Shown here piece by piece: positions 3,808 through 56,210 of a DNA stretch of 64,000 nucleotides. Source of the stretch: Candidatus Omnitrophota bacterium (GTDB lineage Bacteria; Omnitrophota; Gorgyraeia; Gygaellales; Profunditerraquicolaceae); contig JBEKSD010000003.1 of assembly GCA_049517335.1 (NCBI GenBank), positions 45,553 to 109,552 of the forward strand. The letters run 5' to 3'. The position numbers and the translations under genes are program-made. The notes below the pieces were generated by a model. It had not been told where the DNA came from. It saw only the letters and a program-made list of their open reading frames with translations, and ran no database searches. Position 1 is the first letter of the stretch; each line of letters starts with the position of its first letter.

Positions 3808-4320
3808 TTATTTATGGGTAAAAAGCCCGGTTAGCTGCGCTTCTTCTATTACGTGACCTGCTATCGCTTCCGTAAACGCCCGGTTATCCGGCGGCGATTT
3901 AAATTTCAATTCGGTATCGAGGGCAAATATCTTAAATATATAGCGGTGTGTCCCCGAGGGCGGGCAGGGGCCGTGGTAAGCATTGTCTCCCGCGCTGTTT
4001 ACTCCCTGATCGCCCGGCACACTTGCCTCTGTTATACGCGAAAGGGACGGGATATTATAAACAATCCAGTGCGTCCATAATCCTGCTGGCGCATCAGGGT
4101 CAACCACAAGCAAAGCAAGCGTCTTGGTATTGGCAGGTATATCTTTGATGGACAACTCGGGGCTTAGATCATCGCCCCGACAGGAAAATCTTTGGGGTAT
4201 ATATTCATTATTGCCGAAAGAAGGGCTGGTTAATTTCATATTCGCGCTCCAGGCTAAATTAATAAAAAAAATTCCACTTAAAAAACTTAGGAGCAAAAAA
4301 GAAACTACGGGCTTATCCAT
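3808..4320 (-). CDS. YbhB/YbcL family PEBP (Raf kinase inhibitor-like) protein, secreted
   Basis: Signal peptide; DPDAP, WTHW and [11 protein letters not shown] motifs. Confidence 0.9.
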
Positions 4321-43383: not shown

Positions 43384-43408
43384 ATTTATCCTCTTAATAT
43401 ATAATAAG

Positions 43409-43481
43409 TGGAGCTGAGGGGGATTGAACCCCTGACCCCTTGCATGCCATGCAAGTGCTCTCCCAGCTGAGCTACAGCCCC
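43409..43481 (-). tRNA. tRNA-Ala(GGC)
   Basis: GGGGCTGTAGCTCAGCTGGGAGAGCACTTGCATGGCATGCAAGGGGTCAGGGGTTCAATCCCCCTCAGCTCCA; CCA not encoded. Confidence 0.97.
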
Positions 43482-43534: not shown

Positions 43535-43544
43535 TCTTAATCTT

Positions 43545-43627
43545 GCCGAGGTGGTGGAATGGCATACACGTCGGTCTCAAAAACCGATGAGTTCACGCTC
43601 GTGAGGGTTCAACTCCCTCCCTCGGCA
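43545..43627 (+). tRNA. tRNA-Leu(CAA)
   Basis: GCCGAGG acceptor stem, TCGGT-CTCAAAA-ACCGA anticodon arm, long variable arm, GTTCAAC T-loop. Confidence 0.97.
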
Positions 43628-43630
43628 TTA
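43614..43630 (+). repeat. att core (tRNA-proximal), 17-bp direct repeat
   Basis: TCCCTCCCTCGGCATTA, identical to 56171-56187. Confidence 0.92.
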
Positions 43631-43647
43631 TCTTTTTCTCTCCTCGT

Positions 43648-44733
43648 CTATAAATCTCCATTTTTGCCTTTCTTTGGCATAACTTTTGGCATAAGACCGG
43701 TATCTATTTTTGTTATCTCTAATCCCCGTGCCACATTCTCCGGCGTAGCGTGTGCGTAATATTTAAAAATAGTTGCGCTATCCTTATGCCCTGTTATTGC
43801 CTTTACCACTTCCACATTGGCTGTATTATCTAAAATGTTAGTTACTACCCAATGCCTAAATATATGGTTAGTGATATTCTTTTTTATGTCTAGCTCCTTA
43901 CAGGCACGCTTTACATAATTTAATAACAGGTCTTTCCCTATAAAATCTGTTCCTTTATGGAATGGCGGGTAGAGCAAACCATCGGGCTTATATTTCTTCA
44001 TCTTCTTCAGGAGGATTATGTGTTCATTAAAAACCATACAATCCTGATCCGTTAATTTTGCTGGTCTTGGCTCTGTTTTAGCATTTCTGATATACACAAT
44101 CTTGCTGGCTAAATCCACATCAGAAATGAGCATTTTCCTAAACTCACTCCTTCGCCATCCTCTAGTAATAACGAAATATATCCAAGCGTAGAAGTAAGGT
44201 TTATTCTTATAAAACCATTTAAGAATCTTTAACCGTTCTTCCTGAGTAGGCAGAATCCAAACTTTCTTCTCAAAAGGAAAACTCCTTATTTCCTTGGGGT
44301 CAAACTTTGTAACCAGTCTTTTATTTAATGCGCTCTTGCCTATTTCCTTCAGATAATCAAGGTCTCTATTTATGCCTGATTTTGACCTTCCCTCATCGTG
44401 TTTACTGTTTTTGTAGTCGTTAAGTAGGCTTTCTGAATAATCTTCCATTGATTGTCTTGACCGCTTCTGAAGAAATATATCAAAGTGATGCACTGTCTCC
44501 AGAAATACTTCTCTCGTAGCATCAGAGGGTCTCTTGCTTTCTAAAACTTGTAAGGCAAAATCCTTGAAAGCAGTATCTTTAGTTAATATCCCCCCAAGTT
44601 CCCGCCTCCCAGCTTCATCCTTGGCATCTTTTTTCCCAGGATATTTGCTTTTGGGGATAGTGGCAAATTTCTGCTTACTATCAACCATCCACCAAATACG
44701 CCAACTATTTTTCCGTGAAACTACTCCAGCCAT
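43648..44733 (-). CDS. Tyrosine integrase
   Basis: GWRRSE (R), K in AKT, HIFRH (HxxR), TGH, KYY (Y). Confidence 0.92.
   Translation of the reverse strand: MAGVVSRKNSWRIWWMVDSKQKFATIPKSKYPGKKDAKDEAGRRELGGILTKDTAFKDFALQVLESKRPSDATREVFLETVHHFDIFLQKRSRQSMEDYSESLLNDYKNSKHDEGRSKSGINRDLDYLKEIGKSALNKRLVTKFDPKEIRSFPFEKKVWILPTQEERLKILKWFYKNKPYFYAWIYFVITRGWRRSEFRKMLISDVDLASKIVYIRNAKTEPRPAKLTDQDCMVFNEHIILLKKMKKYKPDGLLYPPFHKGTDFIGKDLLLNYVKRACKELDIKKNITNHIFRHWVVTNILDNTANVEVVKAITGHKDSATIFKYYAHATPENVARGLEITKIDTGLMPKVMPKKGKNGDL
43674..43694 (+). repeat. Putative integrase arm-type sites (left)
   Basis: TTGGCATAA x2 with a 12-bp period; same motif at 56018-56038. Confidence 0.65.
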
Positions 44734-44737
44734 AAGT

Positions 44738-44902
44738 TTATTGCTTGCCGTCCTTTTTCATTTTACTTAATACTTCAGCTAAGTCATATCTGTGATTTCT
44801 CCCAATTACGAGAGCAGGAATTATTCCCTTCCTCCTGTAATAATCAACCATCGCTGGGGAAATCTTTAATTCCTTTGCCAATTCTTCCTTATCAATAAGC
44901 AT
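44738..44902 (-). CDS. Excisionase / MerR-like HTH recombination directionality factor
   Basis: Not in the ORF track (54 aa): MLIDKEELAKELKISPAMVDYYRRKGIIPALVIGRNHRYDLAEV; directly upstream of the integrase. Confidence 0.85.
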   Translation of the reverse strand: MLIDKEELAKELKISPAMVDYYRRKGIIPALVIGRNHRYDLAEVLSKMKKDGKQ

Positions 44903-44905
44903 TTT

Positions 44906-45481
44906 TTAACCCTCCTGTTTTACCAAAATTCGCTTTCCTAATTGCCTGTTCTTTTTCCTAATTCCACTGTATCGCAAATAATACCCCCCTGTTGCTCTCG
45001 GTCTTTTATCTTTACTTCCAAGATGCCTCCCAAGCTTAATCCCATCTCTTTTTGCTCTTTCTAAACCACTGATTACCCTACTCCTGATAATTTCCCTCTC
45101 CAACTCGCCAAAAACTCCCAAGAGTTGCCAAAATGCTTTAGACACAGGGTCATCTGCCTTAGCGGTATCAATATTGTCCGTAACAGATACTAACCTAATT
45201 TTCCTATTCCTAAATTCTTGGAATAAATTCAAGAGGTGTGATAGGCTGCGGGCTATGCGGTCTAATTTATAGATTACAATAACATCGAATTTCTTATTCC
45301 TCATATCAATTAAAAGCTGATTTAATTGCGGTCTTGATTCTTTGGCGCCGCTAACGCCAACGTCAACATATTCCCTAAAGACCTTTATCTTATGCTCACG
45401 ACAGAAATCCCTAGGTGGCAATAGCTGTGTTTCAGCAACCTGTTTGCCTGTAGAGACTCTGCCATAAATTGCTCCCAACAT
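44906..45481 (-). CDS. Small serine recombinase (resolvase)
   Basis: YGRVST catalytic Ser, GVSGAKESRP, KLDRIARS, ELEREII. Confidence 0.92.
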   Translation of the reverse strand: MLGAIYGRVSTGKQVAETQLLPPRDFCREHKIKVFREYVDVGVSGAKESRPQLNQLLIDMRNKKFDVIVIYKLDRIARSLSHLLNLFQEFRNRKIRLVSVTDNIDTAKADDPVSKAFWQLLGVFGELEREIIRSRVISGLERAKRDGIKLGRHLGSKDKRPRATGGYYLRYSGIRKKNRQLGKRILVKQEG

Positions 45482-45616
45482 AAAACCTCCTTTACTTATT
45501 CCGAATTACCCCTAGTAGGGTTTAGTTATATAAAAAATAACCTATAAATCTGTACCCCCAAAGGATTATTTTATCTTTGAAAATCATGGTCACGGAACTT
45601 TGGGGAAAACAAGAAG

Positions 45617-45832
45617 TTACCAAAATCCATTAGGCTCAGAAATTGGTATTTTTAATTTTCTCCTGCTCCTTTTTATGCGAGAATCTTGTTCAAGCTTGAA
45701 TCGGCAAAAAGGACACGCCTCTGCGCTCACGCCATTCTTTAATATTTCCTTATCTGGATACCACCAACCACCACAAGTCTGACATTCCTCCAAATTTACC
45801 TTAGCCTTTGCTCCTAACGGTTCTTTTTCCAT
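45617..45832 (-). CDS. Small zinc-finger protein
   Basis: CQTC...CPFC; AAGGAGG RBS. Confidence 0.6.
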   Translation of the reverse strand: MEKEPLGAKAKVNLEECQTCGGWWYPDKEILKNGVSAEACPFCRFKLEQDSRIKRSRRKLKIPISEPNGFW

Positions 45833-45921
45833 CTGATTCCTCCTTGTTAATTAAATTATTCCATAAATAAATCAAATTACTAACCCCCACTTTGTTTAAA
45901 TAAAGTCTTGATAAAATAAAA

Positions 45922-45942
45922 ACCCAGTCTTAAAGACTGGGT
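45922..45942 (-). terminator. Hairpin/intrinsic terminator
   Basis: ACCCAGTCTT-A-AAGACTGGGT followed by a T-rich tract on the minus strand. Confidence 0.6.
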
Positions 45943-45974
45943 ATAAAAATTGATTTTAGTATTATACTTAGTTC

Positions 45975-46559
45975 TTAATCGTATTTCTTACTATAAACAA
46001 TCTCCTTGATTGTCTTAATTGTTCTATGATATTTACGTGATAGCCAATCAATAGCATATGAAGGTTTATCTCCTCTTTTCCTCAGTTTCTTAAATTCTGC
46101 CCTAATCTTTCTTTTATACTCAAAATAGTCAATATTTTTAAGGGCTCCGTATTTGAATTTTCTTCCTTTTAATGATTTTTTGATTTCAGGCAAATAATCT
46201 CTTATATCTCCTGAATTTGCCCATTCGGGGATAGATAAATTAATTTCTGCATCTTTACCTTTTGATTCCACTTTGAGCCCTTTAAGAACTGGTTTATTAC
46301 CCCTGAAACCTTGAAGCCCCCATTTTAAACAAAGCCGACTCATAGCAAAAAATGCAATCATATATTTTCTTTTTCTTAGATGATTAAGATTTAAATCCTC
46401 TCCGGCTATCTTCTTTAATTCTGACAAGTCTTTTTGAAATTCGGGTTTGGACTCTAACTCTCTTAGTTTAGCCTGAAGTCTTCTAACATATGGAAGGTAA
46501 ATGATTTTAGGCGGGCAATTCCTATTAGCTAATTCTTTTAACGCTTCTTCCTTTTTCAT
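45975..46559 (-). CDS. Basic protein with C-terminal HTH (element-encoded regulator-like)
   Basis: K/R-rich; AIDWLSRKYHRTIKTIKEIVY HTH-like tail. Confidence 0.55.
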   Translation of the reverse strand: MKKEEALKELANRNCPPKIIYLPYVRRLQAKLRELESKPEFQKDLSELKKIAGEDLNLNHLRKRKYMIAFFAMSRLCLKWGLQGFRGNKPVLKGLKVESKGKDAEINLSIPEWANSGDIRDYLPEIKKSLKGRKFKYGALKNIDYFEYKRKIRAEFKKLRKRGDKPSYAIDWLSRKYHRTIKTIKEIVYSKKYD

Positions 46560-46568
46560 AATGTATAT

Positions 46569-47906
46569 TTACGACTTATTTTTTCTTTGTTTCTTTTTTA
46601 ATTGCTTAATTCTGTATTGCTCTGCTTCTACTATTTCTTTTGCATATGTAACCATTTTATCGTATTCTTTCTTTCCTTTCGCCTTATTAACGAATAATGA
46701 TAAATCCTTAACACCTTGTTCCATATCATAAAATTTATAACCTATAATGCCCATTGCAAATAAGAAAGCAATTTCATTTTTATTCTCCTGATATCGCTGA
46801 TTAAAGAATTCCAGGAGTTGGGGTATATATACATCAATTACAGTAAAAGATATGACCTTCTTATACCAAAATAATGCCCTATCATAGTTCTTTTCCAATA
46901 GCATAAAAAAGGCATTATTGAGGAAAACCACTGGGTGTTCTTTTTCAATCTCGCTTGCTTTAGCAGTATACCCTTTGGCTTTATTTAAATCTCCCAAGAA
47001 ATATTCTAATCTTGCCAATTGGATATAAACACGGAAATGATTTATCGGAAGCCGCAGTAGCTCTATGAAACATTGCTTAGCCACTCTATATTCTTTTTTT
47101 TCAATCAGCTCTTCTCCTATCAATATGTATAATTCGCTGATGATTACGTTAATTCTGCCTTCAATAAGAGGTTTAAAGGTATCGGGTTTCATAGCTGCCA
47201 ACATCTGTTGTAGACCGTTAAATAATTTTAACGCATCGCGCAACCTATTATCAGTAAACAGATGTATTCCAAAAATGAAAATCCCAGCTTCGACAAAGTT
47301 ATCAGCAACCTTTATCTCTTCAAATAATGTGTTGTCAATGTTGAGTATCCAATCACGAGTTCCAGCAATCAAAGCTAAATCGGCATTAAACAGCAACATC
47401 TTATTTTTTAACCACTGATTTAGCCTATAAGTATAATTTAAGCTGAAGCTAACGACATCTTTACCTTCCTTTGTTTCAACGAAAGCGCTGCCCCAAATAA
47501 TTAAATCCACTCCTTGGTTCTCACAATATTGAACCGCTTCTTCACGTTTATTAATAATATCGGAAGCTATATTAATTATTTTCACTTCCTTAGAAATATT
47601 AAAATTATCAAGCTTAATTCTAAGCTTTTCTAATACTTTTTCGAAATGTAATTTTGACTTATCATCTGTTTTAATGCAGAAAATCAATGTGTATTTATTG
47701 GTAGGCAAAATAAATCTTCCGCTTTTACAGAACCAAAACGCCATCCATAAAAGAATTAAGGCAGGAGCAATATATAAGACGAAAGGAATTTTGATTATGT
47801 AGCATATTAACGAAATTAACAAAATACCACCCAATAACCCACCAATGGTTTTGGGTTCTTTCTTTAATGAACCTAAAGCTAAATCAAATAGTCCTTTCAT
47901 ACCCAT
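46569..47906 (-). CDS. 2-TM membrane protein with C-terminal TPR repeats
   Basis: Two N-terminal hydrophobic helices, DLIIWG domain, TPR-like helices. Confidence 0.7.
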   Translation of the reverse strand: MGMKGLFDLALGSLKKEPKTIGGLLGGILLISLICYIIKIPFVLYIAPALILLWMAFWFCKSGRFILPTNKYTLIFCIKTDDKSKLHFEKVLEKLRIKLDNFNISKEVKIINIASDIINKREEAVQYCENQGVDLIIWGSAFVETKEGKDVVSFSLNYTYRLNQWLKNKMLLFNADLALIAGTRDWILNIDNTLFEEIKVADNFVEAGIFIFGIHLFTDNRLRDALKLFNGLQQMLAAMKPDTFKPLIEGRINVIISELYILIGEELIEKKEYRVAKQCFIELLRLPINHFRVYIQLARLEYFLGDLNKAKGYTAKASEIEKEHPVVFLNNAFFMLLEKNYDRALFWYKKVISFTVIDVYIPQLLEFFNQRYQENKNEIAFLFAMGIIGYKFYDMEQGVKDLSLFVNKAKGKKEYDKMVTYAKEIVEAEQYRIKQLKKKQRKNKS

Positions 47907-48065
47907 ATTTTGTTTTTACATTATACCACTATCAACCCAAATATGGCGGGTAAATAAACTATTAATTGTTTGGTTTAGAAACTAATGAGTAGGTATCGAC
48001 GATAAAGCTTAATTACTTTTATAGGGGGGTTTATTTGGCAAACCTAAGGAGTATTTATATAGAGG

Positions 48066-48536
48066 CTATTCCCAACCTTTTATCTTATAGTCAAAGGTTA
48101 TTTTCTTAATCTGCGGGTTGCTTTCATATTTATTAAGGCACCGCTTGTCCATCTTGAAGCCTTTTTGCCTATTTATTCTACACTGTCTTTCAAATTCTAC
48201 CCAAGGCAATAGATACATCCGTATATTATTAGCATCATCAATTGAATCAACTACGACAGCAAGATAAGGCTCACAATCAAAGATTTTGCAGGCAGATAAT
48301 ACTTCTCTTTTGCTTGGGATGGTTACATTGCTATAAGCTTGCCCTCTTTCACGGGTGCGGGCTTTAACACTTATGCCTAGCCTTTCTTTTGTCTTCTTGT
48401 TATACGCTATTAAGTCAATTCCAATATAATCAACATTAACAACCTCATAGCCATACTTAGATAGCCAATACATCAGCATAGCTTCGCCAAAGTCGCCAGC
48501 AATCTTACTATGCCTTGAGCTCTTTCTTATTTCCAT
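48066..48536 (-). CDS. PD-(D/E)XK nuclease (Hjc/restriction-endonuclease-like)
   Basis: GDFGE...GYEV...GIDLIA...ISVKAR; start reassigned to ATG 48536. Confidence 0.75.
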   Translation of the reverse strand: MEIRKSSRHSKIAGDFGEAMLMYWLSKYGYEVVNVDYIGIDLIAYNKKTKERLGISVKARTRERGQAYSNVTIPSKREVLSACKIFDCEPYLAVVVDSIDDANNIRMYLLPWVEFERQCRINRQKGFKMDKRCLNKYESNPQIKKITFDYKIKGWE

Positions 48537-48543
48537 GTAAAGG

Positions 48544-48572
48544 ATTGTATCACCTACTTTAGTGGGTGTCAA
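48544..48572 (-). promoter_or_regulatory. Sigma70 promoter with palindromic operator in the spacer
   Basis: TTGACA-17-TACAAT; CACCTACT-TT-AGTGGGTG at 48551-48568; ATG 7 nt downstream of the -10. Confidence 0.7.
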
Positions 48573-48814
48573 TATGTGGAATTTTATGGGAGAATTGGAG
48601 CGTGGAAAATATTAATGCTGGATTTGGAAAACACTTAAAAGACCTACGCAGAAAAAAGAAGATAACTCAAGAGGAGCTTGCGGAATTGGCTAACTTGGAA
48701 TACAAATACATCCAGCGCCTTGAGGGTAAGAAGCCTTCTTCTCCTACCTTAAACACCTTAGAGAAACTTGCCAAAGCCTTCAGTATAACTCCTTCACAAT
48801 TACTTAAATTTTAA
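48566..48814 (+). CDS. XRE/Cro-C1 HTH regulator (C-protein-like); real start probably GTG 48602
   Basis: FGKHLKDLR..TQEELAE...YIQRLE...PTLNTLEKLAKAF. Confidence 0.9.
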   Translation: MSICGILWENWSVENINAGFGKHLKDLRRKKKITQEELAELANLEYKYIQRLEGKKPSSPTLNTLEKLAKAFSITPSQLLKF

Positions 48815-48818
48815 TTAC

Positions 48819-50033
48819 TTATTTCTCTTTATCCTGTAATTTTGATAAAGAAACGGATTTTTTGGATTCAATCTTTAAAAAACCTTTAATTTTAGTCATT
48901 ATCTTCTTATCCCATCTTGATTCATTAACGGCTTTTTCAACTGCATAGGTGTCTATATCAGCGACTTCATCCCACTTGCCGGCTTCCTTTAACGCTTTTG
49001 ATAATTCTTCCCGTTCTTCGCTTCCCTTAGGAGGACAGGAAACTTTCTGTTTTTCGGCAACTTTAAGCTTATTATTGTTGCCTATGATAATGCTGGATTT
49101 TTCTTCTTCGGCATACTGGATAACCGCTTCTTTTACCTTATCTATTTCCTCATCTATTTTGTCAATCTCTCCCTGTTGCTCACGCTTCTTAGCTACAAGC
49201 TTAGCGAAAGTATTTACAAGCTTTACGCCGCTGTCTTTTAGGTATTCATTTACAGGTAGAGCTTCCACTTTATAGAGGTGCTTTCTCTTGGGGCAAAGGT
49301 CAGGATATACGCACCATTCGCAAAGGCTACTTTCATTCGGTAGGAATTCCTCTGTAGCTTCAATCTTATCAATTAGGACTGCCGTATCATTCTTTAGCTG
49401 CTCCAATTGTTTATCAGTCCTCACAGAGGACATTTCCTTGTCAAAAACCACATAATGCCAGATTAACTTGACCTTATTGACATCATTCCAAGTGTCGCTT
49501 ATGCCAATTTGATACAGAGCAAGCTGTCTATCCTCATCAAAATGCGCCTGTCCGGGCAAGGATCCGGAAGTCTTATAATCATGTATCTCATAAGTATCGT
49601 CTTGTGCTTGGGCTAGCCTATCTATGTAACCCCTAAGCTTATATTTACCGTCCCCATTTAAGTCAATCAAAACCTCCCTCTCAAGACCTAAGACCCTGCT
49701 CTGGTCAAAGGGAGAATAGCGCTTATAATAATCCTCAATGCATTTCCTGCCTATGTTTTTGTAGTCCTCAGCGGTTCTATCTTTCTTAGTAACAATAATA
49801 GTATCGTTATATTCCTTATCCCATTGGCTTTCATAATAACCCAATAGCTCCTTTAAGGAATATGTCTTGCATTTAAGGTCTTTATAGAGTTTCTGCATGG
49901 TTTCGTGGAAACGAGAACCCATAAATGCCTCAATGCCTTCTTGTTCACGCTCAATCTTATCTATGTAGGAAAACTTATACCGGAGAGGACAGGATTCAAA
50001 ACTATTTAATCTGGAATGGGAATATATAGGCAT
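48819..50033 (-). CDS. RecB/Cas4-like PD-(D/E)XK nuclease with Fe-S Cys set and C-terminal coiled coil
   Basis: YSHSRL..F.SCP, GYIDRL...IHDYKTS, QLALY, CEWC.....CP. Confidence 0.85.
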   Translation of the reverse strand: MPIYSHSRLNSFESCPLRYKFSYIDKIEREQEGIEAFMGSRFHETMQKLYKDLKCKTYSLKELLGYYESQWDKEYNDTIIVTKKDRTAEDYKNIGRKCIEDYYKRYSPFDQSRVLGLEREVLIDLNGDGKYKLRGYIDRLAQAQDDTYEIHDYKTSGSLPGQAHFDEDRQLALYQIGISDTWNDVNKVKLIWHYVVFDKEMSSVRTDKQLEQLKNDTAVLIDKIEATEEFLPNESSLCEWCVYPDLCPKRKHLYKVEALPVNEYLKDSGVKLVNTFAKLVAKKREQQGEIDKIDEEIDKVKEAVIQYAEEEKSSIIIGNNNKLKVAEKQKVSCPPKGSEEREELSKALKEAGKWDEVADIDTYAVEKAVNESRWDKKIMTKIKGFLKIESKKSVSLSKLQDKEK

Positions 50034-50095
50034 ATTATTTTTGTTTATTTCCGCCTACCCAAAGATTGATAGGTATTAGTTTACATGCTTTTTAC

Positions 50096-50698
50096 TTACC
50101 TTTTTCTTCTGATAAATTTTCTTATTACTTCGTTAAGATTTATTCCCAAACCAAAAAAATTTGGTTTTAATTCAAGCATATCGACATTATCACCGATTTT
50201 AGTTTTAATTTTCCCTTTCCTACCAACAAAATCCTCTAAACGTCCTGCGAGATTTGATAGGTCTCTCATATCAATAGCCATGCCTCGACCTTGTTCATAT
50301 AATTCTTCAACTAATCTAAAGTTTTTATTGTCGTAATCTTTATCCTCATATCTATTATGCCAAATTTCACCATAGCGAATATCGAGATCCGTGGCTGTTT
50401 TATATAAATTCCTAATTCTTTTCACGTGATGAACTTTAACTTCCTGTTGTATCTCACTTAGTATTTCAGAGATTTCTTTAATACTTGTATCATAAAATTT
50501 TAAGGAATATTGTACTATACCTTGAAAGTCACTGTCTACTTTTTTCCAATATTCTAATTCTTTAAGTTTTCGAATATTTTTAGAAATAATTGTAGTAACT
50601 TCTTCAAGATTCTTAATCCATACCTGTAAGTCAAGAAACATATCATCAAAGGTCTGATGAGAATAATCTGTCATTCCCGCTATCATTGACCTACTCAT
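50096..50698 (-). CDS. Hypothetical helical protein
   Basis: AAGGAG RBS; C-terminal LELKPNFFGLGINLN. Confidence 0.65.
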   Translation of the reverse strand: MSRSMIAGMTDYSHQTFDDMFLDLQVWIKNLEEVTTIISKNIRKLKELEYWKKVDSDFQGIVQYSLKFYDTSIKEISEILSEIQQEVKVHHVKRIRNLYKTATDLDIRYGEIWHNRYEDKDYDNKNFRLVEELYEQGRGMAIDMRDLSNLAGRLEDFVGRKGKIKTKIGDNVDMLELKPNFFGLGINLNEVIRKFIRRKR

Positions 50699-50757
50699 TT
50701 TTACTCCTTATAATTTTCAAGTTTTGAAGTTAAAGTTTGATTAGTTTGAAGTCTTGA

Positions 50758-50982
50758 TTATTTTCTGAAAAGTAAATAAAAAATTATTAAAAAGACGATA
50801 AACGGTATAATCAGAGGAAAACCATATTTTTGAATCTGATTAAGCGAAGGCTTAACAATTAGCCCTTCCCTTTCCTTTTTCCTTGCTTCATTTAAATCCT
50901 TATTAATTTGCCAAAATACACCTATAATTGTTACTATAGCAGTTACAGCCGCAATTATCAGACCCCAAACTGGTATTGTCAT
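50758..50982 (-). CDS. Small 2-TM membrane protein
   Basis: Two hydrophobic segments; GAGG RBS. Confidence 0.6.
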   Translation of the reverse strand: MTIPVWGLIIAAVTAIVTIIGVFWQINKDLNEARKKEREGLIVKPSLNQIQKYGFPLIIPFIVFLIIFYLLFRK

Positions 50983-51018
50983 TCCTTTGATTCCTCGGTA
51001 TCCCTTACTTCAATTGTA

Positions 51019-52137
51019 TTAGCTATTTCTTATGCTTTTAAAATTTTCTACATACTCAGCTAAATCATGATAACTTTTCATTTTGAAGTTCCTAAATATT
51101 GACTTATATCTCTCTGGAATTAGACTGCCTCTTTTAAACATTTCAGGATTTACAACATCTATCTCAAAATTCGCATCCTCATAGTAATGTATTTGTCTGA
51201 ATAGCCATTCAGTATAAAAATCTGTTGGTGGAAAAGAATACCCAATAAAAACAATGCGTTTAGTATATGCAAGCTTTTCACGAGTAAGAAGCCAAAGCTT
51301 ATGTAGAAAATTATCCTGATATACGAGCTTATTAGAAACGGGCGGGATAATGCCTATAGCTGTTTTTTCCTGCCCACAAGACTGACATCTTCGAGAATTT
51401 TTTGAAGCAAATCCTGGAAACTTCCTATTTCTCGTTAAAGGGGATAGGGCGGGCTTTTTGTAGCTCTTGCATTGTCTATTTTGACAAACTATCCAATTAA
51501 ATGAACCATGCAACTTTAAAAATAACCCTCGCCTCTTATATTGTTCAATATTTATATTTTTGTCCTTCATTATTCTTATGTAATTCTTAAATTGGGAAGT
51601 TTTAAGGATTGCCAACGTAGTATCGGCTATAGTATCCCAATTAAAAGAGATGATAGTATCACGGGGTTTAAGTTTAGAAAATAAGCTTATTAAGTGTTCA
51701 CAATGTTGCCCTTCACAACGAATAGTTAACATTAAAGTAATAAAATCTATAAGGGATTTTTTAGCTTTTGAGAAAACTGAACCATACCTATCTCCTTTTC
51801 GCAGCATCTTCTCACCAACATCAAGAAAGGTAAAAACCTCTTCTATATTAATATTTTCCCACTCTTTTGGTTCAAATGATTCTATATTATTTTTTAATCC
51901 CCAACCATAAACTAGAAAATTATTTGTCCCCTCATATGTCATACCAAGAGAGTTTATAAGTCTTTCAGAATGTACATCAGTTTTCTTTTGTAGGAATAAA
52001 TCGTAAAAGAAATTCTTCGCTGAAGGCATCTTTGAAAGAGATTCCCTCCAACTATCCTCAATTGGGTATCTTTTTGCACCCATGGTAGCCCCATTACCTA
52101 AAACAAGCATTGTATTATTACACCCAGCAATACTCAT
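51019..52137 (-). CDS. SIR2-like (SIR2_2) protein with zinc ribbon
   Basis: VLGNGA, ISFNWD, LKLHGS, CxxxxC...CxxC, IIPP, FIGYSF. Confidence 0.85.
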   Translation of the reverse strand: MSIAGCNNTMLVLGNGATMGAKRYPIEDSWRESLSKMPSAKNFFYDLFLQKKTDVHSERLINSLGMTYEGTNNFLVYGWGLKNNIESFEPKEWENINIEEVFTFLDVGEKMLRKGDRYGSVFSKAKKSLIDFITLMLTIRCEGQHCEHLISLFSKLKPRDTIISFNWDTIADTTLAILKTSQFKNYIRIMKDKNINIEQYKRRGLFLKLHGSFNWIVCQNRQCKSYKKPALSPLTRNRKFPGFASKNSRRCQSCGQEKTAIGIIPPVSNKLVYQDNFLHKLWLLTREKLAYTKRIVFIGYSFPPTDFYTEWLFRQIHYYEDANFEIDVVNPEMFKRGSLIPERYKSIFRNFKMKSYHDLAEYVENFKSIRNS

Positions 52138-52156
52138 ATCTTTATAATTATCATTA

Positions 52157-52924
52157 TCATGATTTATCCATGGGCATTGAATTTACCATTTCGACTACAG
52201 CGTCAAAAGTAGCCCATCCCCTTTGTTCTTTAACAACAGTATCAATGCAATATTTAATCGTTGTTACATCATATTGTTTAAGCAATTGACCAATAAATCC
52301 TTCAGAAGCCTCTTTCCAATCTTGAGGGCGTTTTCTATTCCAATAATTTATTACTTCACGAGTATCCTTATGCGATGTATCGCCCGTTAATTCTGCTTTC
52401 CAATTATGCAATATGCCGCACATATAACTGAACCTTTTTTCAACATTTTCCTTGGTAATCTTTGGAAACTTATTACAGGCTATCTCAATAGCTTCTTTAA
52501 TTTTCTCAGGTGGAAGGAATTTTAGAAACTTCCTAATACTTACTTTTCCGCTTTCAGATAGTGAGAATTTATAATTATCCTTTAAATTCCAATAACTATT
52601 AACTTCTTCAACTTGTTTCTCTAAACTCTTTGTTACTTGTTTTAAGAATTTCCTGTATTCTTCTAACTGCAACCTACCTTCTTCCAACTTAGCGTTTTCT
52701 TCGGAATAATCAATCTTACTACCTATCTTGGATAGAAGAACCTTCCCCTTACCCTTGTTGCAATCAAAACATGAAGTAACATAATTTGACATATCTTCTT
52801 TTCCACCCTCACAAACTGGTATTATGTGGTCTACCTCAAGTATGGCGACAGGAGGAATTCTGCCGCAGTATTTACAGGTAAAGTTATCTCTTTTAAAAAC
52901 CTCAAACCTTAATTTTTTATTCAT
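52157..52924 (-). CDS. HNH endonuclease with C-terminal helical domain
   Basis: LRFEVFKRDNFTCKYCG...LEVDHIIP...GG....N...SCFDCN.GK. Confidence 0.88.
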   Translation of the reverse strand: MNKKLRFEVFKRDNFTCKYCGRIPPVAILEVDHIIPVCEGGKEDMSNYVTSCFDCNKGKGKVLLSKIGSKIDYSEENAKLEEGRLQLEEYRKFLKQVTKSLEKQVEEVNSYWNLKDNYKFSLSESGKVSIRKFLKFLPPEKIKEAIEIACNKFPKITKENVEKRFSYMCGILHNWKAELTGDTSHKDTREVINYWNRKRPQDWKEASEGFIGQLLKQYDVTTIKYCIDTVVKEQRGWATFDAVVEMVNSMPMDKS

Positions 52925-52931
52925 TTACTAC

Positions 52932-53153
52932 CTAACGTAAAGATTCAATAACCCGTGTAAGCACTTGCCCAAATCTTTCATCAGCAGCCCAATCGTGAAT
53001 ATCGCCAATGATTCCATCAGGATACTTCTCTTTAAATTTACCCTCTAATTCCTTTGGAACCTCAGTAGCAACAATGTTTGTTTTCTCTAATTTTAACCGT
53101 ATAAAACCAAAGTTTGGAATAAAAACCATTCTTTTTTCCATAATAGCCTCCAT
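52932..53153 (-). CDS. Small hypothetical protein
   Basis: Intact ORF in the operon; GGAGG RBS suggests a start at the second Met. Confidence 0.55.
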   Translation of the reverse strand: MEAIMEKRMVFIPNFGFIRLKLEKTNIVATEVPKELEGKFKEKYPDGIIGDIHDWAADERFGQVLTRVIESLR

Positions 53154-53186
53154 AAAAAAGGCAACCCTTTATTTAGAAAGTTGACC

Positions 53187-53504
53187 TTATTTATTTGTAT
53201 CACTAATTTTAAGTAACAGTATAATAAACAAAACCGCAACAACTAAATCAATGAGCTTCCATGTTGATTTATTTAAATAAACAGGAAATATCGGGTTAAA
53301 TAAAAAAGCAGACAATCCAGTTATTATCATCCATCTTGTTTTCTTAAATTTATAAGCTAGTATACATATTAGACCGCTTGTAATGAATATAACTAGACGA
53401 AGTAATACGTAATAACTATAAGGAAATCTGGCTATTAAACAAAGAAGTAACATTACTATTGAAACAATTAATAAAATCTTTATTAATGCGGCATTTTGCT
53501 TCAT
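53187..53504 (-). CDS. Small membrane protein (DUF6804-like)
   Basis: PYSYYVLLR...LFNPIFPVYL...W..ID motif. Confidence 0.65.
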   Translation of the reverse strand: MKQNAALIKILLIVSIVMLLLCLIARFPYSYYVLLRLVIFITSGLICILAYKFKKTRWMIITGLSAFLFNPIFPVYLNKSTWKLIDLVVAVLFIILLLKISDTNK

Positions 53505-53514
53505 GATTGATTAA

Positions 53515-54378
53515 CTAAAAGAAAAACCACGTTCTATTCCTAATAATTGGTATAACAAGTATTAATATAGGCAAAATTATCAATATCCCAATGATTTTAA
53601 GTTTGCGATACTTCGCATTTTTATTCTTAATAGCCTCTATTGCGTAATAAAAAGCTACTATAATTATAGCCCATATCATTACAAGCCCGAAGACCCTAGT
53701 AATAATCTTTAACAAACCTTTTCCTTCATCTCCGGTAAACATAGCTATAAGCGAATCTAACCAAAATTGTCTTGTAGTTAAAAATTTCGTAGCATCATAT
53801 ATTTGGATTATAGAAAAATCTAGTAGGAATTTAAAAACAGAATAAGTAGCTATTGCGATTAAAACCCAAAGCCTTTTTGAAATGCCCCAAAGGGTAAAGT
53901 TAACTTCATCCCTTATATCTCCAAAATCACTTCTTTTAGCGTAGGAATAACCGCAGTAAGCTCCTATAAATGTAGCAGCAATATGGGATATCAAGCTAAA
54001 TTTATTTAGTGGTGACGCCGCAATCCAATAATCTGTTAACTCAGAAAAGCTAAATCCACCTTTTAGAAAAGGTAAAAAAAGAATAACTGGTAGAGCAAAT
54101 CTTCCCAAAAATCCAAAAGCTAAATAGAAAAACAAGTTAAATTTCCTGAACCAATATGCAAATATGCCAACTATAACTGATACAGTAAAGAAACTATAGA
54201 TAACTCCTAATATACTTAAAATCCATTCTTGTAAACCTGATACTATTAGACCTTCTTTTGCGCAAGCATTGAGAAAATCGTTAATTCTTATAGGCGCTGC
54301 GGAAGCATAATAAAGAAATAAGAATGAGCAAAACAAAATAGCAAATATCAATTGTTTGTTATTCTTAATTTTTTCCAT
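53515..54378 (-). CDS. Multi-pass membrane protein, unknown function
   Basis: About 6-7 hydrophobic segments. Confidence 0.65.
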   Translation of the reverse strand: MEKIKNNKQLIFAILFCSFLFLYYASAAPIRINDFLNACAKEGLIVSGLQEWILSILGVIYSFFTVSVIVGIFAYWFRKFNLFFYLAFGFLGRFALPVILFLPFLKGGFSFSELTDYWIAASPLNKFSLISHIAATFIGAYCGYSYAKRSDFGDIRDEVNFTLWGISKRLWVLIAIATYSVFKFLLDFSIIQIYDATKFLTTRQFWLDSLIAMFTGDEGKGLLKIITRVFGLVMIWAIIIVAFYYAIEAIKNKNAKYRKLKIIGILIILPILILVIPIIRNRTWFFF

Positions 54379-54534
54379 GGCAATTACTCTACCGTATATT
54401 GAACATTAACAAAATCAGCCTTTATTAATTATACCACTTCCGTTTCAAAAATGGTTAAGATCTCATTATGCTTCATCACTCCTGTAATGCGAAATTAGAA
54501 TATATCCTACCCCCTTACTCAATTATAATAAATC

Positions 54535-54664
54535 CAGCATTACCCATCTGTATAAGTAAACTGGCGGGAGAATCTGTCATAGATTAATCTGACTAATGGT
54601 CAATCATACTAAACTCAGCATCACCCATCTGTATAAGTAAACGGACTCGAAAAGTCTGTCATAG
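54535..54664. repeat. Two-copy ~48-bp imperfect direct repeat (81-bp period)
   Basis: CAGCATYACCCATCTGTATAAGTAAAC-N11/12-TCTGTCATAG at 54535-54582 and 54616-54664. Confidence 0.85.
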
Positions 54665-54828
54665 AGTATCCCGTATCAATATCAGGTAATTTCCAGCTAA
54701 ACCCAGATAATCCCAAGGTTTAAAGCTAAATCAGGCGGTTTTTGGTTAAAATAAGCTCTCTCCCGCAAGTTTAGGCTCTAACCCCCATAGACCCCCTAAT
54801 CCCCAGCGTTAGTTTCATAATCAGCACT

Positions 54829-55017
54829 CTAGTGGTGGGTTTTACCAGCTAGCGAATGATTTTTACCACCTATGCCTGCACGATTAGGGTTCTTACCAAA
54901 CCGATACGTATATAATGAGCAGGTTTCAGAATCGCAAAGCCTGACTAAAGAAGGTCTGCCTCCAACACATTCCAGACACTTTGCTCTGATTGCTTTCACT
55001 GGTGTTAAGCATTTCAT
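54829..55017 (-). CDS. Small Cys-rich phage/MGE-type protein
   Basis: TPVKAIRAKCLECVGG....VRLC....CSLYTYRFGKNP; AAGGAGG RBS before ATG 55017. Confidence 0.7.
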   Translation of the reverse strand: MKCLTPVKAIRAKCLECVGGRPSLVRLCDSETCSLYTYRFGKNPNRAGIGGKNHSLAGKTHH

Positions 55018-55138
55018 TCTACGTAAACCTCCTTCATTGATTGGACTAAACAATAATCCGTAGACATCATTGCTTGCAGTAACAAACCTTACAGCAGCAA
55101 ATACTGGGCATGACAGAAGTCTGGGAAGCTGACACGCA

Positions 55139-55276
55139 ATAACTCATTAAATTACTCATAAAGACACAATTACTCACAAGACCCCCCCTAGACTCAAATT
55201 AACTCATATGTGTAACTATGAACAAAATAGCAACAAAACTAGTTGTTACACAATATGTATAACAGTAGTTACACAT
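55139..55276. repeat. Repeat-rich putative replication origin
   Basis: ATTACTCA(T/C)A(A)AGAC x2, further ACTCA units, and a perfect 11-bp IR ATGTGTAACTA (55208)/TAGTTACACAT (55266). Confidence 0.5.
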
Positions 55277-55980
55277 TATTGTGTAGCGGGATTTGGGGTT
55301 ACAGGAGTTTTCCAGCATAGAAACCTGTATCCATTAGCCTTTCCTGAAAAAGTGCCCCTTTTACCCTTAACTACCTTTTGAAGCATACCTTCACTGATTA
55401 AATCCTCTATTCTTCTAACAATAGTCATTGGTTCAATTCTTTGTCCATCATTATCCCTTATCATTGCCGCTATCTTTCTGTAGCCGATATATATAATTTC
55501 ACCTGTTTGTTTTTCTAGCTGGAATCTTCTGATATTCTTCAGTATCCAATACATTACATAACCATCTGGGCCTTTATAACGTGCCTCTAGGAAATGCCTT
55601 GCTTCCTCAAAATCAAAAGGGTTCTCTTGAGTGGACTGCTTATAAGAACACTCTTTCAATATGCGGAAGGTGCATTTTTCTTCCGGCTCAATGCAGTAAC
55701 TTTCTAAAGCCTTACAGCCAATGTTACATTCGTGCTTATCTGTCCATTCAACAAAATCAAGAAGCTGCCTCTTTTGTTCATTGTATGCAAGCGGCTTCTC
55801 GCATCTCTGGTTCCACTCTAGGAGTTTATCTTTAACCTCTGATGAACTAAAGCCAATCCTTTTTAGCTCAACAATGATTGCAAAGCTCATCTTACGAAAC
55901 TCATTACCTCTCTTAGCGCCTTGTTCAAAGCAAATCTTTACGCAATCGCGAAGATTATTAAGGTCTTTTTTATCTTCCAT
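55276..55980 (-). CDS. Rep-like protein: primase C-terminal (PriCT/PriL-CTD-like) domain plus winged helix
   Basis: G.RN.....I..ELKRIG......KLLEWN.RC.KPL...E; Cys cluster; YRKIA...TIVRRIEDL...G.L...G...ANGYRF wHTH. Confidence 0.6.
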   Translation of the reverse strand: MEDKKDLNNLRDCVKICFEQGAKRGNEFRKMSFAIIVELKRIGFSSSEVKDKLLEWNQRCEKPLAYNEQKRQLLDFVEWTDKHECNIGCKALESYCIEPEEKCTFRILKECSYKQSTQENPFDFEEARHFLEARYKGPDGYVMYWILKNIRRFQLEKQTGEIIYIGYRKIAAMIRDNDGQRIEPMTIVRRIEDLISEGMLQKVVKGKRGTFSGKANGYRFLCWKTPVTPNPATQ

Positions 55981-56017
55981 ATCGATTTAATCCGCTATTG
56001 CCTGTTAAAAATAAAAC

Positions 56018-56038
56018 ATGGCATAGAAATTGGCATAA
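56018..56038 (+). repeat. Putative integrase arm-type sites (right)
   Basis: ATGGCATAG and TTGGCATAA with a 12-bp period. Confidence 0.6.
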
Positions 56039-56170
56039 AAAATAAAGAAATAGACCAATTCTACGGTTGATTAACTCTACGCAACTTTGTTTAATTTAAG
56101 TGGAATTATAGACGAGATACTGACGAGAATATTACAATGAAAGGAAAAATCCGAATAAGGGCTTGAAGAA

Positions 56171-56187
56171 TCCCTCCCTCGGCATTA
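56171..56187 (+). repeat. att core (distal): duplicated tRNA-Leu 3' end
   Basis: TCCCTCCCTCGGCATTA. Confidence 0.92.
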
Positions 56188-56193
56188 ACTCAA

Positions 56194-56210
56194 CCCGGCT
56201 CTTAGCCGGG
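56194..56210 (+). terminator. Hairpin terminator (likely the original tRNA-Leu terminator, displaced by the island)
   Basis: CCCGGCT-CTT-AGCCGGG followed by CTTATTTTTT. Confidence 0.6.

Follow-up and report, generated by a model that had tools for sequence, protein, structure and literature searches.

A compact island in a tRNA-Leu gene of an Omnitrophota bacterium and a family of small elements that share its Rep-like gene

Insertion site and boundaries

The DNA analysed here (the window; 64,000 bp, positions 45,553 to 109,552 of contig JBEKSD010000003.1, assembly GCA_049517335.1) comes from the metagenome-assembled genome (MAG) of an uncultured peat bacterium of the phylum Omnitrophota, and carries a genomic island inserted into the 3′ end of a tRNA-Leu(CAA) gene with a 17-bp duplicated core. 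The target gene (43544–43628, plus strand; called by ARAGORN and, at 59.6 bits, by the Rfam tRNA model) has its 3′ end rebuilt from the attachment (att) core. The 17-mer forming attL (43614–43630, plus strand) consists of the last 15 nt of the tRNA gene and two further nucleotides, and recurs as an exact direct repeat at attR (56171–56187, plus strand). These are the only two copies in the window; two matches to the 17-mer, with two mismatches permitted, were reached in none of 100 dinucleotide-preserving shuffles, which bears out the att duplication proposed in an initial annotation of this DNA. Between the cores lie 12,540 bp with a G+C content of 34.7%, as against 42.5% in the remaining window and 40.6% to 44.5% in 63 windows of equal size outside the island. 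A tRNA-Ala(GGC) gene (43408–43481, minus strand; ARAGORN) stands to the left. Directly outside the right end is a G+C-rich hairpin with a T-run (56194–56210, plus strand; motif scan), followed by a gene for a GDSL hydrolase and then rlmN; from its position the hairpin is probably the displaced terminator of the tRNA-Leu gene. An Rfam scan at E up to 0.1 returned the two tRNAs and nothing else.

Relatives were consulted for the state of this site. In a DNA search of 40 of them, all from other genera than the host, the island flanks were matched in every one, and among the matches listed the interior accounted for two short pieces only, one in the XRE regulator gene (genome G023) and one in the Rep-like gene (G021). 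The site DNA was inspected in seven relatives. Three of family-level relatedness (G011, G002 and G014) have only ~50–150 bp between the tRNA-Ala/tRNA-Leu(CAA) pair and the end of the GDSL gene, with rlmN next, and so provide the empty sites by which the initial annotation had proposed to check its claim of a discrete insertion; match coordinates suggest that the sites of G003 and G026 are likewise empty. These empty sites and the differing occupants found elsewhere show the block to be an insertion into a variable spot and not inherited DNA.

The other occupants are of several kinds. In G012 the tRNA-Leu/GDSL site (L016:642-5620) holds a 5.2-kb arsenic-type operon without an integrase, encoding ACR3/SBF-like, DsbD-like, thioredoxin, methyltransferase, ArsP permease and DUF134 proteins; ~130 bp past the tRNA a stretch resembles, by eye, a tRNA 3′ end. 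In two family-level relatives, G018 and G007, a free-standing LAGLIDADG_3 homing-endonuclease-like gene lies directly past tRNA-Leu(CAA), at the position of the island (L018:1814-2470 and L019:338-1012; E 5.7e-10 and 1.7e-08). A FeoB gene occupies the site in G023.

Short repeats lie inside both island ends. The first TGGCATAA repeat pair, 12 bp apart (43675–43694, plus strand; copies at 43675 and 43687), is 45–64 bp inside attL, and the second TGGCATAR pair, also 12 bp apart (56019–56038, plus strand; copies at 56019 and 56031), is 133–152 bp inside attR. The arm-like repeats of the initial annotation stand as to their arrangement but not as to their number. TGGCATAR is not enriched in the window overall (eight copies against a mean of 5.15, with eight reached by 16 of 100 shuffles), whereas four of the eight copies make up these two same-strand pairs, one near each island end, and 200 first-order Markov simulations of the window produced no such pair. 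The pairs are candidate arm-type sites for the integrase.

Backbone genes of the island

Every island gene lies on the minus strand except the XRE regulator gene, and the coding density is 88%. We scanned the 17 open reading frames (ORFs) against four libraries (Pfam, PHROGs, PADLOC and NCBIfam); seven matched nothing in any of them.

A complete recombination module adjoins attL, with the integrase, the excisionase and the second, serine recombinase that the initial annotation had listed; the recombinase genes are all open, full-length reading frames. The 361-aa tyrosine integrase (43648–44733, minus strand; PF00589, E 1.5e-15; phrog_1, 5.7e-28) has 32 homologues, from Omnitrophota where a host is named, the best two at 68–69% identity. 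Next to it is a 54-aa excisionase-like protein of the helix-turn-helix (HTH) family HTH_17 (44738–44902, minus strand; HTH_17, 1e-05, 26.1 bits against a cut-off of 27; phrog_7735 excisionase, 2.6e-06), which clusters with HTH_17 genes upstream of the integrase in 13 related loci. A 191-aa small serine recombinase of the resolvase/invertase type (44906–45481, minus strand; PF00239, 5.9e-37; phrog_125, 2.5e-39) has homologues in seven related loci. A 22-nt imperfect inverted repeat (44300–44321 and 45932–45953) was considered as the bounds of a segment inverted by this serine recombinase and rejected, since the integrase gene contains one of the arms and the two match at only 82%.

The far end is taken up by the gene for a 234-aa Rep-like protein (55276–55980, minus strand). 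Directly downstream is a second backbone gene, for a 74-aa Cys-rich protein (54829–55053, minus strand) with no family match, whose homologues directly follow the Rep-like gene in 5–7 related loci. The 222-bp spacer between the two carries iteron-like short direct repeats (55131–55279; repeat families D2, D3 and D6), which make it a candidate origin. Beyond the Cys-rich gene, a 450-bp non-coding stretch (54379–54828) holds two longer direct repeats of period 81–82 (54519–54668; 54 nt at 81% identity and 14 nt at 93%), so that the repeats noted earlier beside the Rep-like gene are present in two places. The stretch has no Rfam match and no listed ORF of at least 50 aa, and could be an operator/promoter region or an RNA of a new type.

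The XRE/Cro-CI-type regulator (48566–48814, plus strand) has homologues at 50–53% identity in three related loci, two of which were scanned and match HTH_3/HTH_26 and PHROG repressor families. The best promoter-like site of the island (48544–48572, minus strand) matches 11 of 12 consensus positions and has a TG extension. This consensus match is directed away from the XRE gene, at the head of the operon whose last genes encode the serine recombinase, excisionase and integrase.

The Rep-like protein

The initial annotation had read the Rep-like gene as encoding a primase C-terminal domain and a winged helix-turn-helix (wHTH). Direct searches are silent on this. The protein has no family match in the four libraries, its profile found nothing below E 0.1 among PDB sequences, and a Foldseek search of the PDB with the whole model gave weak winged-helix matches only, with E above 0.01. 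We collected 54 homologues, for which no Pfam domain is recorded. An alignment of 44 members has four invariant cysteines (C13, C89, C96 and C103) and a nearly invariant one (C60).

Structure and distant homology were more informative. In the AlphaFold model (pLDDT 90.8) the C-terminal half is a winged helix, matched by Fur, the DnaD N-domain, primosomal DnaB and ORC/Cdc6 winged helices at Z 7.6–8.8. The N-terminal 120 residues, modelled alone (pLDDT 84.6), form a helix bundle at about residues 8–100. Its best fold match is PriX of the Sulfolobus PriSLX primase (5of3_C; Z 8.4, rmsd 2.9, 84 residues aligned), which leads by 2.2 Z units over the eukaryotic PriL Fe-S domain (Z 6.2), followed by photolyases and by the RepB′ and pRN1 primase helix bundles. 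Foldseek against BFVD gave nothing at E up to 0.001 for this domain, the weak rows being rich in primases. A profile search of 1.84 billion representative proteins returned 137 clusters, and we scanned 33 of the weaker matches, picked for weak E-value or extra length. PF08708 (PriCT_1) was found in 13 of the 33, inside the matched stretch in the rows whose coordinates were compared, and four of the 33 have Prim-Pol or archaeo-eukaryotic primase (AEP)-TOTE catalytic domains ahead of that stretch. Several are ~240 aa long, with PriCT_1 and then an HTH (P0155, P0165, P0181 and P0188), an architecture like that of the Rep-like protein.

The distant sequence matches with PF08708, taken together with the fold, therefore support the earlier domain reading as far as a PriCT_1-type bundle and a winged helix are concerned; they do so by way of distant profile and fold matches, the family having no direct match and no catalytic domain. 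One Omnitrophota genome carries two tandem, divergent paralogues of the gene (L066:722-2172, G089:C2), at 27–29% identity to that of the window.

A family of related elements

Pattern searches with the alignment of Rep-like proteins yielded five loci in species-representative genomes and 37 in metagenome contigs, which with that of G021 make 43 further loci, 37 of them distinct. The named hosts are Omnitrophota (several loci), one Endomicrobiales MAG and one bin labelled Planctomycetia. Within Omnitrophota the gene occurs in three of 401 genomes, the window's own counted, a patchy distribution as expected of a mobile element.

Neighbouring genes were clustered over 44 loci, the window included, as the initial annotation had recommended. 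Tyrosine integrases are found in 19 loci, HTH_17 proteins in 14, serine recombinases in eight (large ones in the integrase position in two of these, L046 and L058) and the XRE regulator in four; in 11 a SpoVG-like gene immediately precedes the Rep-like gene, a ~200-aa protein occurs in eight and the 74-aa Cys-rich protein in six. Fourteen distinct loci extend for at least 3 kb downstream of the Rep-like gene, and 13 of them have a recombinase on that side. The closest layout is that of L037, where the Rep-like gene is followed by cargo, a small serine recombinase (35% identity), a 56-aa HTH protein and an integrase; the latter is the best match to the window's integrase among related loci, at 25% identity. 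A backbone of PriCT_1-wHTH protein, small Cys-rich protein, HTH_17 excisionase and site-specific recombinase recurs in many loci, together with tRNA-derived repeats and unrelated cargo. None of the window's cargo has a homologue in the related loci at E <1e-5, except for a 70-residue HNH-domain match in L024, and the relatives carry instead HEPN/nucleotidyltransferase pairs, HNH nucleases, an AbiEii-like ATPase, a Dcm-Vsr-HNH set, a GHKL-ATPase and Toprim pair, and Fic/Doc proteins. A literature search, supplementary files not covered, found no description of this element family, in keeping with the earlier suggestion of an undescribed one. The elements in the accessible portion of a preprint on lateral gene transfer in Omnitrophota (10.64898/2026.05.20.726742) are much larger and unrelated.

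Six relatives of 5.6–13 kb are bracketed by tRNA-derived direct repeats of 17–49 nt. As in the window, the tRNA 3′ end is used in L037 (25 nt of tRNA-Ser, 8.5 kb), L038 (49 nt of tRNA-Gln, 8.3 kb) and L043 (17 nt of tRNA-Ser, 13 kb). In nine loci (L020, L025, L026, L027, L032, L036, L040, L047 and L056) the arrangement is different, and the position of the integrase stop codon ranges from 45 nt inside the 5′ end of a same-strand tRNA gene (L036) to 43 nt ahead of it; these genes encode tRNAs for Gln, Leu(TAA), Arg, Met, Ala, Lys (twice), Phe and Tyr. A second repeat copy was sought in the three 5′-type loci with enough upstream DNA (junction regions L027:11957-13212, L036:11509-12751 and L040:5374-6529). 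In L027 the second copy, 8.9 kb upstream, consists of tRNA nucleotides 1–37; that of L036, 7.8 kb upstream, is 41 nt long (3 nt of flank and tRNA nucleotides 1–38), and that of L040, 5.6 kb upstream, is 45 nt long (4 nt of flank and tRNA nucleotides 1–41). Since this 37–45-nt repeat is essentially the 5′ part of the tRNA, which the integrase stop codon abuts or overlaps, the attP core overlaps the end of the integrase gene in the 5′-type elements. In L035 the integrase adjoins a tRNA-Leu(CAA) gene on the opposite strand, as in the window.

Some loci bear traces of further events. In L027 a 109-aa C-terminal integrase fragment (3950-4279) directly precedes the upstream partial tRNA-Met, and a third partial copy, of 14 nt, lies at 2894, which suggests successive insertions and decay at one tRNA. 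In L020 (8266-8289 and 8422-8445) and L040 (6511-6537 and 6639-6665) the tRNA 3′ end, 24 and 27 nt respectively, is duplicated 128–156 bp downstream; these short duplications resemble a very small scar or mini-element with att sites at its ends.

Transfer genes

No capsid, portal, terminase, tail, relaxase, coupling-protein, type IV secretion system (T4SS) or ATPase family was found among the 17 island ORFs, in agreement with the initial annotation; these absence calls are only as good as the four libraries, in which 7 of the 17 matched nothing. The host MAG (1.45 Mb, 92% complete) has two Xer-like recombinases besides the island integrase, and no large terminase (PF03237, PF03354), HK97 capsid (PF05065), VirB4 or PF03432 relaxase was found in it. 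Nor did capsid, portal, large terminase or tail families appear among the 229 scanned proteins of the relatives. In two of these relatives, L025 (Terminase_2, 7e-10; phrog_51, 1.3e-15) and L043 (phrog_2538, 6.7e-14), a stand-alone gene resembling a small terminase is located between the Rep-like and excisionase genes.

This last gene bears on whether the island is a true phage satellite of the phage-inducible chromosomal island (PICI) or PICMI type, which would be excised on induction by a helper phage, replicated with its aid and packaged, its nuclease and SIR2 cargo striking the helper or competing phages. The size, the integrase and excisionase pair, the divergent XRE gene, a replication-type gene beside repeats and the lack of structural genes all fit, and PICMIs, as described in the accessible text of PMC10803314, show that satellites can do without packaging genes. 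The small-terminase-like gene, on the other hand, occurs in only two scanned loci, and no terS, capsid-remodelling or phage-sensing gene was recognised in the window element. IMG/VR viral contigs yielded no copy of the Rep-like gene, the MAG yielded no helper prophage marker, and no Omnitrophota phage is linked to these elements. We therefore rate a true satellite as unlikely, if the foremost of the alternatives. The dependence on a helper proposed in the initial annotation goes beyond the data, being drawn from the absent transfer genes and a small-terminase-like gene that two relatives have and the window element lacks.

Conjugation offers another route. An integrative mobilisable element (IME) without a relaxase of its own might hitch on conjugation by means of a cryptic origin of transfer (oriT); the island has two repeat-rich non-coding stretches that could harbour one, and islands having only an oriT have been proposed as common hitchers (bioRxiv 10.64898/2026.01.13.699239, in the part of the text that was accessible). 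Such a life is very improbable here, given that relaxase, coupling-protein and T4SS families are lacking in the island and in the relatives' 229 scanned proteins, and that neither VirB4 nor a PF03432 relaxase was found in the MAG.

Cargo

The genes between the two backbone ends are taken here from left to right, all on the minus strand. A 71-aa Cys-rich ORF (45617–45832) has weak zinc-ribbon matches only, below cut-off. It is followed by a terminator-like hairpin (45922–45942; consensus scan only) 3′ of the gene for a 194-aa basic protein (45975–46559) with no match in the four libraries, and by a 445-aa protein (46569–47906) with TPR-like repeats, from weak TPR matches, and, by eye, a hydrophobic N-terminus. 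A 168-aa ORF (48066–48572) has weak YraN/UPF0102-like similarity (PF02021, 9.7e-04, below cut-off). Past the XRE gene lies a 404-aa PD-(D/E)XK exonuclease of Cas4/RecB type (48819–50033; PF12705, 2.6e-32; phrog_69, 2.9e-30; PADLOC Cas4, 2.7e-08). A 200-aa helical protein (50096–50698) has no family match and an uninformative best Atlas match (0.86); an R-x5-H spacing spotted by eye had raised the idea of a HEPN protein, which was dropped for lack of support. Next come a hydrophobic ORF of 74 aa (50758–50982) with no family match and a 372-aa SIR2_2-like protein (51019–52137; PADLOC Aga_SIR2, 4.2e-07; Atlas 0.98 by features, TM 0.74). The aligned part of the matched Atlas cluster meets the SIR2_2 (PF13289) bar; the protein itself has no Pfam match and nothing meaningful among PDB sequences, and distant homologues occur in 17 of the 401 Omnitrophota genomes. 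A 255-aa protein (52157–52924) joins an HNH endonuclease to a DnaD/DnaB_2-like region (PF01844, 1.3e-11; phrog_16986, 1.5e-33; phrog_14314, 3e-31), the DnaB_2 match of 4e-04 being below cut-off. The block ends with a 73-aa ORF without a match in the four libraries (52932–53153), a 105-aa DUF6804 protein (53187–53504; PF20619, 2.3e-23) and a 287-aa hydrophobic protein with no family match (53515–54378), probably a multi-pass membrane protein.

By their domain names, the SIR2_2-like, HNH-DnaD-like, Cas4-like and YraN-like proteins, the last three nucleases, together with the membrane proteins, probably act in conflict with phages or other elements. A pairing of the SIR2_2-like and TPR proteins was also looked at. 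Another Omnitrophota genome has an integrase (Int_N and PF00589, 3.5e-38), a SIR2_2 gene (3.5e-05) and an adjoining homologue of the 445-aa TPR protein (E 1.9e-15) in one cluster (L083:3576-10128, G165:C36), near two tandem tRNA-Arg(ACG) genes, so that SIR2_2 and a TPR protein of this type may be a mobile two-gene module. As a system the pair was set aside as too thin, the TPR homologue being present in only one of 11 distant-SIR2 loci, each with ~1.5 kb of flank.

Four or five of the island's proteins are hydrophobic. Along with the seven family-less ORFs they invite the thought of a provirus of some unrecognised, non-tailed, membrane-containing virus whose virion components they would be, as has been proposed for Dehalococcoides IME1; the accessible part of that work (bioRxiv 10.64898/2026.09.15.751708) reinterprets an ‘IME’ as a budding or filamentous virus. 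The hydrophobic proteins are absent from all relatives at E <1e-5, however, which makes them cargo and no part of a conserved virion module. The library scans also brought up no ATPase in the island, whereas the IME1s, according to the same text, have a pI-like one. Of the alternatives considered we give this the least credence.

Interpretation

We think it rather probable that the island belongs, as a cargo carrier, to an undescribed family of small (5.6–13 kb) tRNA-integrating elements, mainly of Omnitrophota, and that it works in the manner of tycheposons or ‘hitchers’. Its tyrosine integrase would act on the paired TGGCATAR sites of both arms to recombine the core, with the excisionase setting the direction of recombination. 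The XRE regulator, divergent from the promoter-like site of the operon for the serine recombinase, excisionase and integrase, would hold the element quiescent. After excision the PriCT_1-wHTH protein might bind the iteron-like repeats and recruit a primase or replisome encoded elsewhere, and the small serine recombinase might resolve multimers. Since it has no transfer apparatus of its own, the element would pass from cell to cell with outside help, in phage capsids or vesicles or by DNA uptake.

Several observations weigh against this interpretation. Three concern the Rep-like protein. PriCT matches were found in none of the 44 family members in a scan at E up to 1, the fold scores of the N-domain are modest for a helical bundle, and no catalytic primase, helicase or nuclease domain was found, so that the protein cannot replicate DNA alone. 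The iteron-like region is not general to the family, in that the gap after the Rep-like gene is only ~30–110 bp in most relatives. The part assigned to the cargo in defence derives from domain names, and PADLOC recognised no complete known defence system in the island. An extrachromosomal stage, moreover, has never been seen. No homologue of the Rep-like gene was found in IMG/VR, INPHARED (50,697 phage records) or PLSDB (72,556 plasmid records), and terminal overlaps, the sign of a circular molecule, are lacking in all 29 whole contigs that carry it. Logan assembled contigs of four peat metagenome runs, one of which may be the source of the window, were compared with the region and contained no attP or attB joint and no indels, a result from contigs that does not exclude rare forms. 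The contig depth of the island is 7.0–8.4, that of the flanks 8.0–9.7. Of the initial annotation's claims, those of excision and self-replication accordingly did not find support: excision for want of attP or attB joints, with rare forms below the reach of contigs, and self-replication in view of the missing catalytic domain, the depth equal to that of the flanks and the lack of circular contigs.

The same data would suit an immobile or decaying island, that is, a prophage remnant or fixed element in which the Rep-like protein is a mere DNA-binding regulator and the serine recombinase has nothing to do with the element. The two runs that hold most of the island show the integrated form only, at chromosomal depth and with identical sequence (a contig of a second run crosses attL with zero differences). 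Phage-type genes (HNH-DnaD-like, exonuclease, XRE) are present, and the Rep-like protein is without an enzymatic domain. Decay sits badly, however, with att copies identical at 17 of 17 positions, which is unusual for a deletion remnant, with recombinase genes that are all open and full-length, and with the recurrence of the small size and the Rep-to-integrase layout in six repeat-delimited relatives. Nor was the element found in the 40 relatives, among the matches listed, and its strong G+C deviation points to recent arrival. An immobile island is in our judgement improbable, and a mobile tRNA-integrating element that works much as tycheposons do the better account.

Comparison with known systems

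The closest described analogues would appear to be tycheposons, followed by PICI and PICMI satellites. Tycheposons are, in the accessible text of Hackl et al. (bioRxiv 10.1101/2020.12.28.424599), small tRNA-targeting elements of Prochlorococcus and other marine bacteria that are flanked by partial tRNAs, with a tyrosine or, in a minority, large serine integrase, an excisionase, a small serine recombinase and a primase, helicase or polymerase as hallmarks. Judged by that account, the resemblances are a tRNA target with partial tRNA copies, in the window element and its relatives; an excisionase, a small serine recombinase and a replication-type gene in the window, with integrases that are tyrosine enzymes there and large serine ones in L046 and L058; a division into cargo carriers and PICI-like members bearing terS in both groups; and tandem remnants of integrase fragments and partial tRNAs, here in L027. 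The likeness is drawn at the level of gene types. The hallmark of our family is a PriCT_1-wHTH protein without a catalytic domain, not a primase, helicase or polymerase; the hosts are Omnitrophota of peat and sediment; and most relatives integrate by way of the tRNA 5′ half, which their integrase stop codon adjoins.

PICIs such as the SaPIs are att-bounded islands of 10–15 kb with an integrase, an excisionase or alpA gene, an HTH regulator and a replication gene by repeats, without virion genes, and commonly with anti-phage cargo. The window island is similar in having an integrase and excisionase within 12,540 bp bounded by att sites, an HTH regulator, repeats by a replication-type gene and no virion genes. 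It differs in lacking a pri-rep (primase and helicase) pair and any AEP, Toprim or helicase domain, iteron-like repeats being present all the same; its 17 ORFs include no homologue of terS, ppi, cpm, rpp or capsid genes, and no helper is known. PICMIs are defined, in the part of PMC10803314 that was accessible, by a DUF3987/DUF5906 primase, an integrase and alpA, integrated downstream of fis, and share with the window island an integrase, an AlpA/HTH_17 protein, one replication gene and the lack of packaging genes. The island has no DUF3987/DUF5906 match and its target is tRNA-Leu(CAA), not fis; it is twice the PICMI size because of its cargo.

Stand-alone PriCT_1 and HTH proteins and the AEP primases with PF08708 are related to the Rep-like protein through the distant profile matches and the PriX/PriL C-terminal fold. 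They differ from it in that its family nowhere reaches PF08708 (0 of 44 members) and in its four invariant and one near-invariant cysteines, which we could not assign to a known PriCT_1 feature. With IMEs and integrative and conjugative elements (ICEs) the island has in common a site-specific tRNA integration and cargo, but no relaxase, coupling protein or T4SS was found in it and no VirB4 or PF03432 relaxase in the MAG. From tailed prophages it is set apart by the lack of capsid, portal, large terminase and tail genes. In line with the undescribed family supposed in the initial annotation, the element fails the defining gene sets of PICI, PICMI and ICE, and no relaxase by which to class it as an IME was found.

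Significance

Omnitrophota are abundant, uncultured bacteria with small genomes, and to our knowledge little has been learnt of gene exchange among them. A bolder reading, possible though doubtful as yet, is that the PriCT_1-wHTH protein without a catalytic domain, with its cysteine set and Cys-rich partner, constitutes a new minimal replication or hijack module that captures the primase of a host or helper, and that these elements are the first satellite-like hitcher family in Omnitrophota, swapping integrases freely and ferrying candidate defence genes. The integrase types of such a family would be those that use the tRNA 5′ half, with attP over the stop codon, those that use the 3′ end and come with a small serine recombinase, and large serine integrases. 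Until excision, replication or transfer is observed, the single island described here is an ordinary tRNA-integrated one. The 234-aa hallmark gene and the tRNA-derived repeats nonetheless make a compact marker for elements of 5.6–13 kb with interchangeable integrases and hypervariable cargo, parallel to what tycheposons are for Prochlorococcus, and open the way to testing whether the same island-building strategy operates in streamlined anaerobes. A primase accessory domain without a primase, standing at one end of every element, hints at an unstudied way to start or borrow replication.

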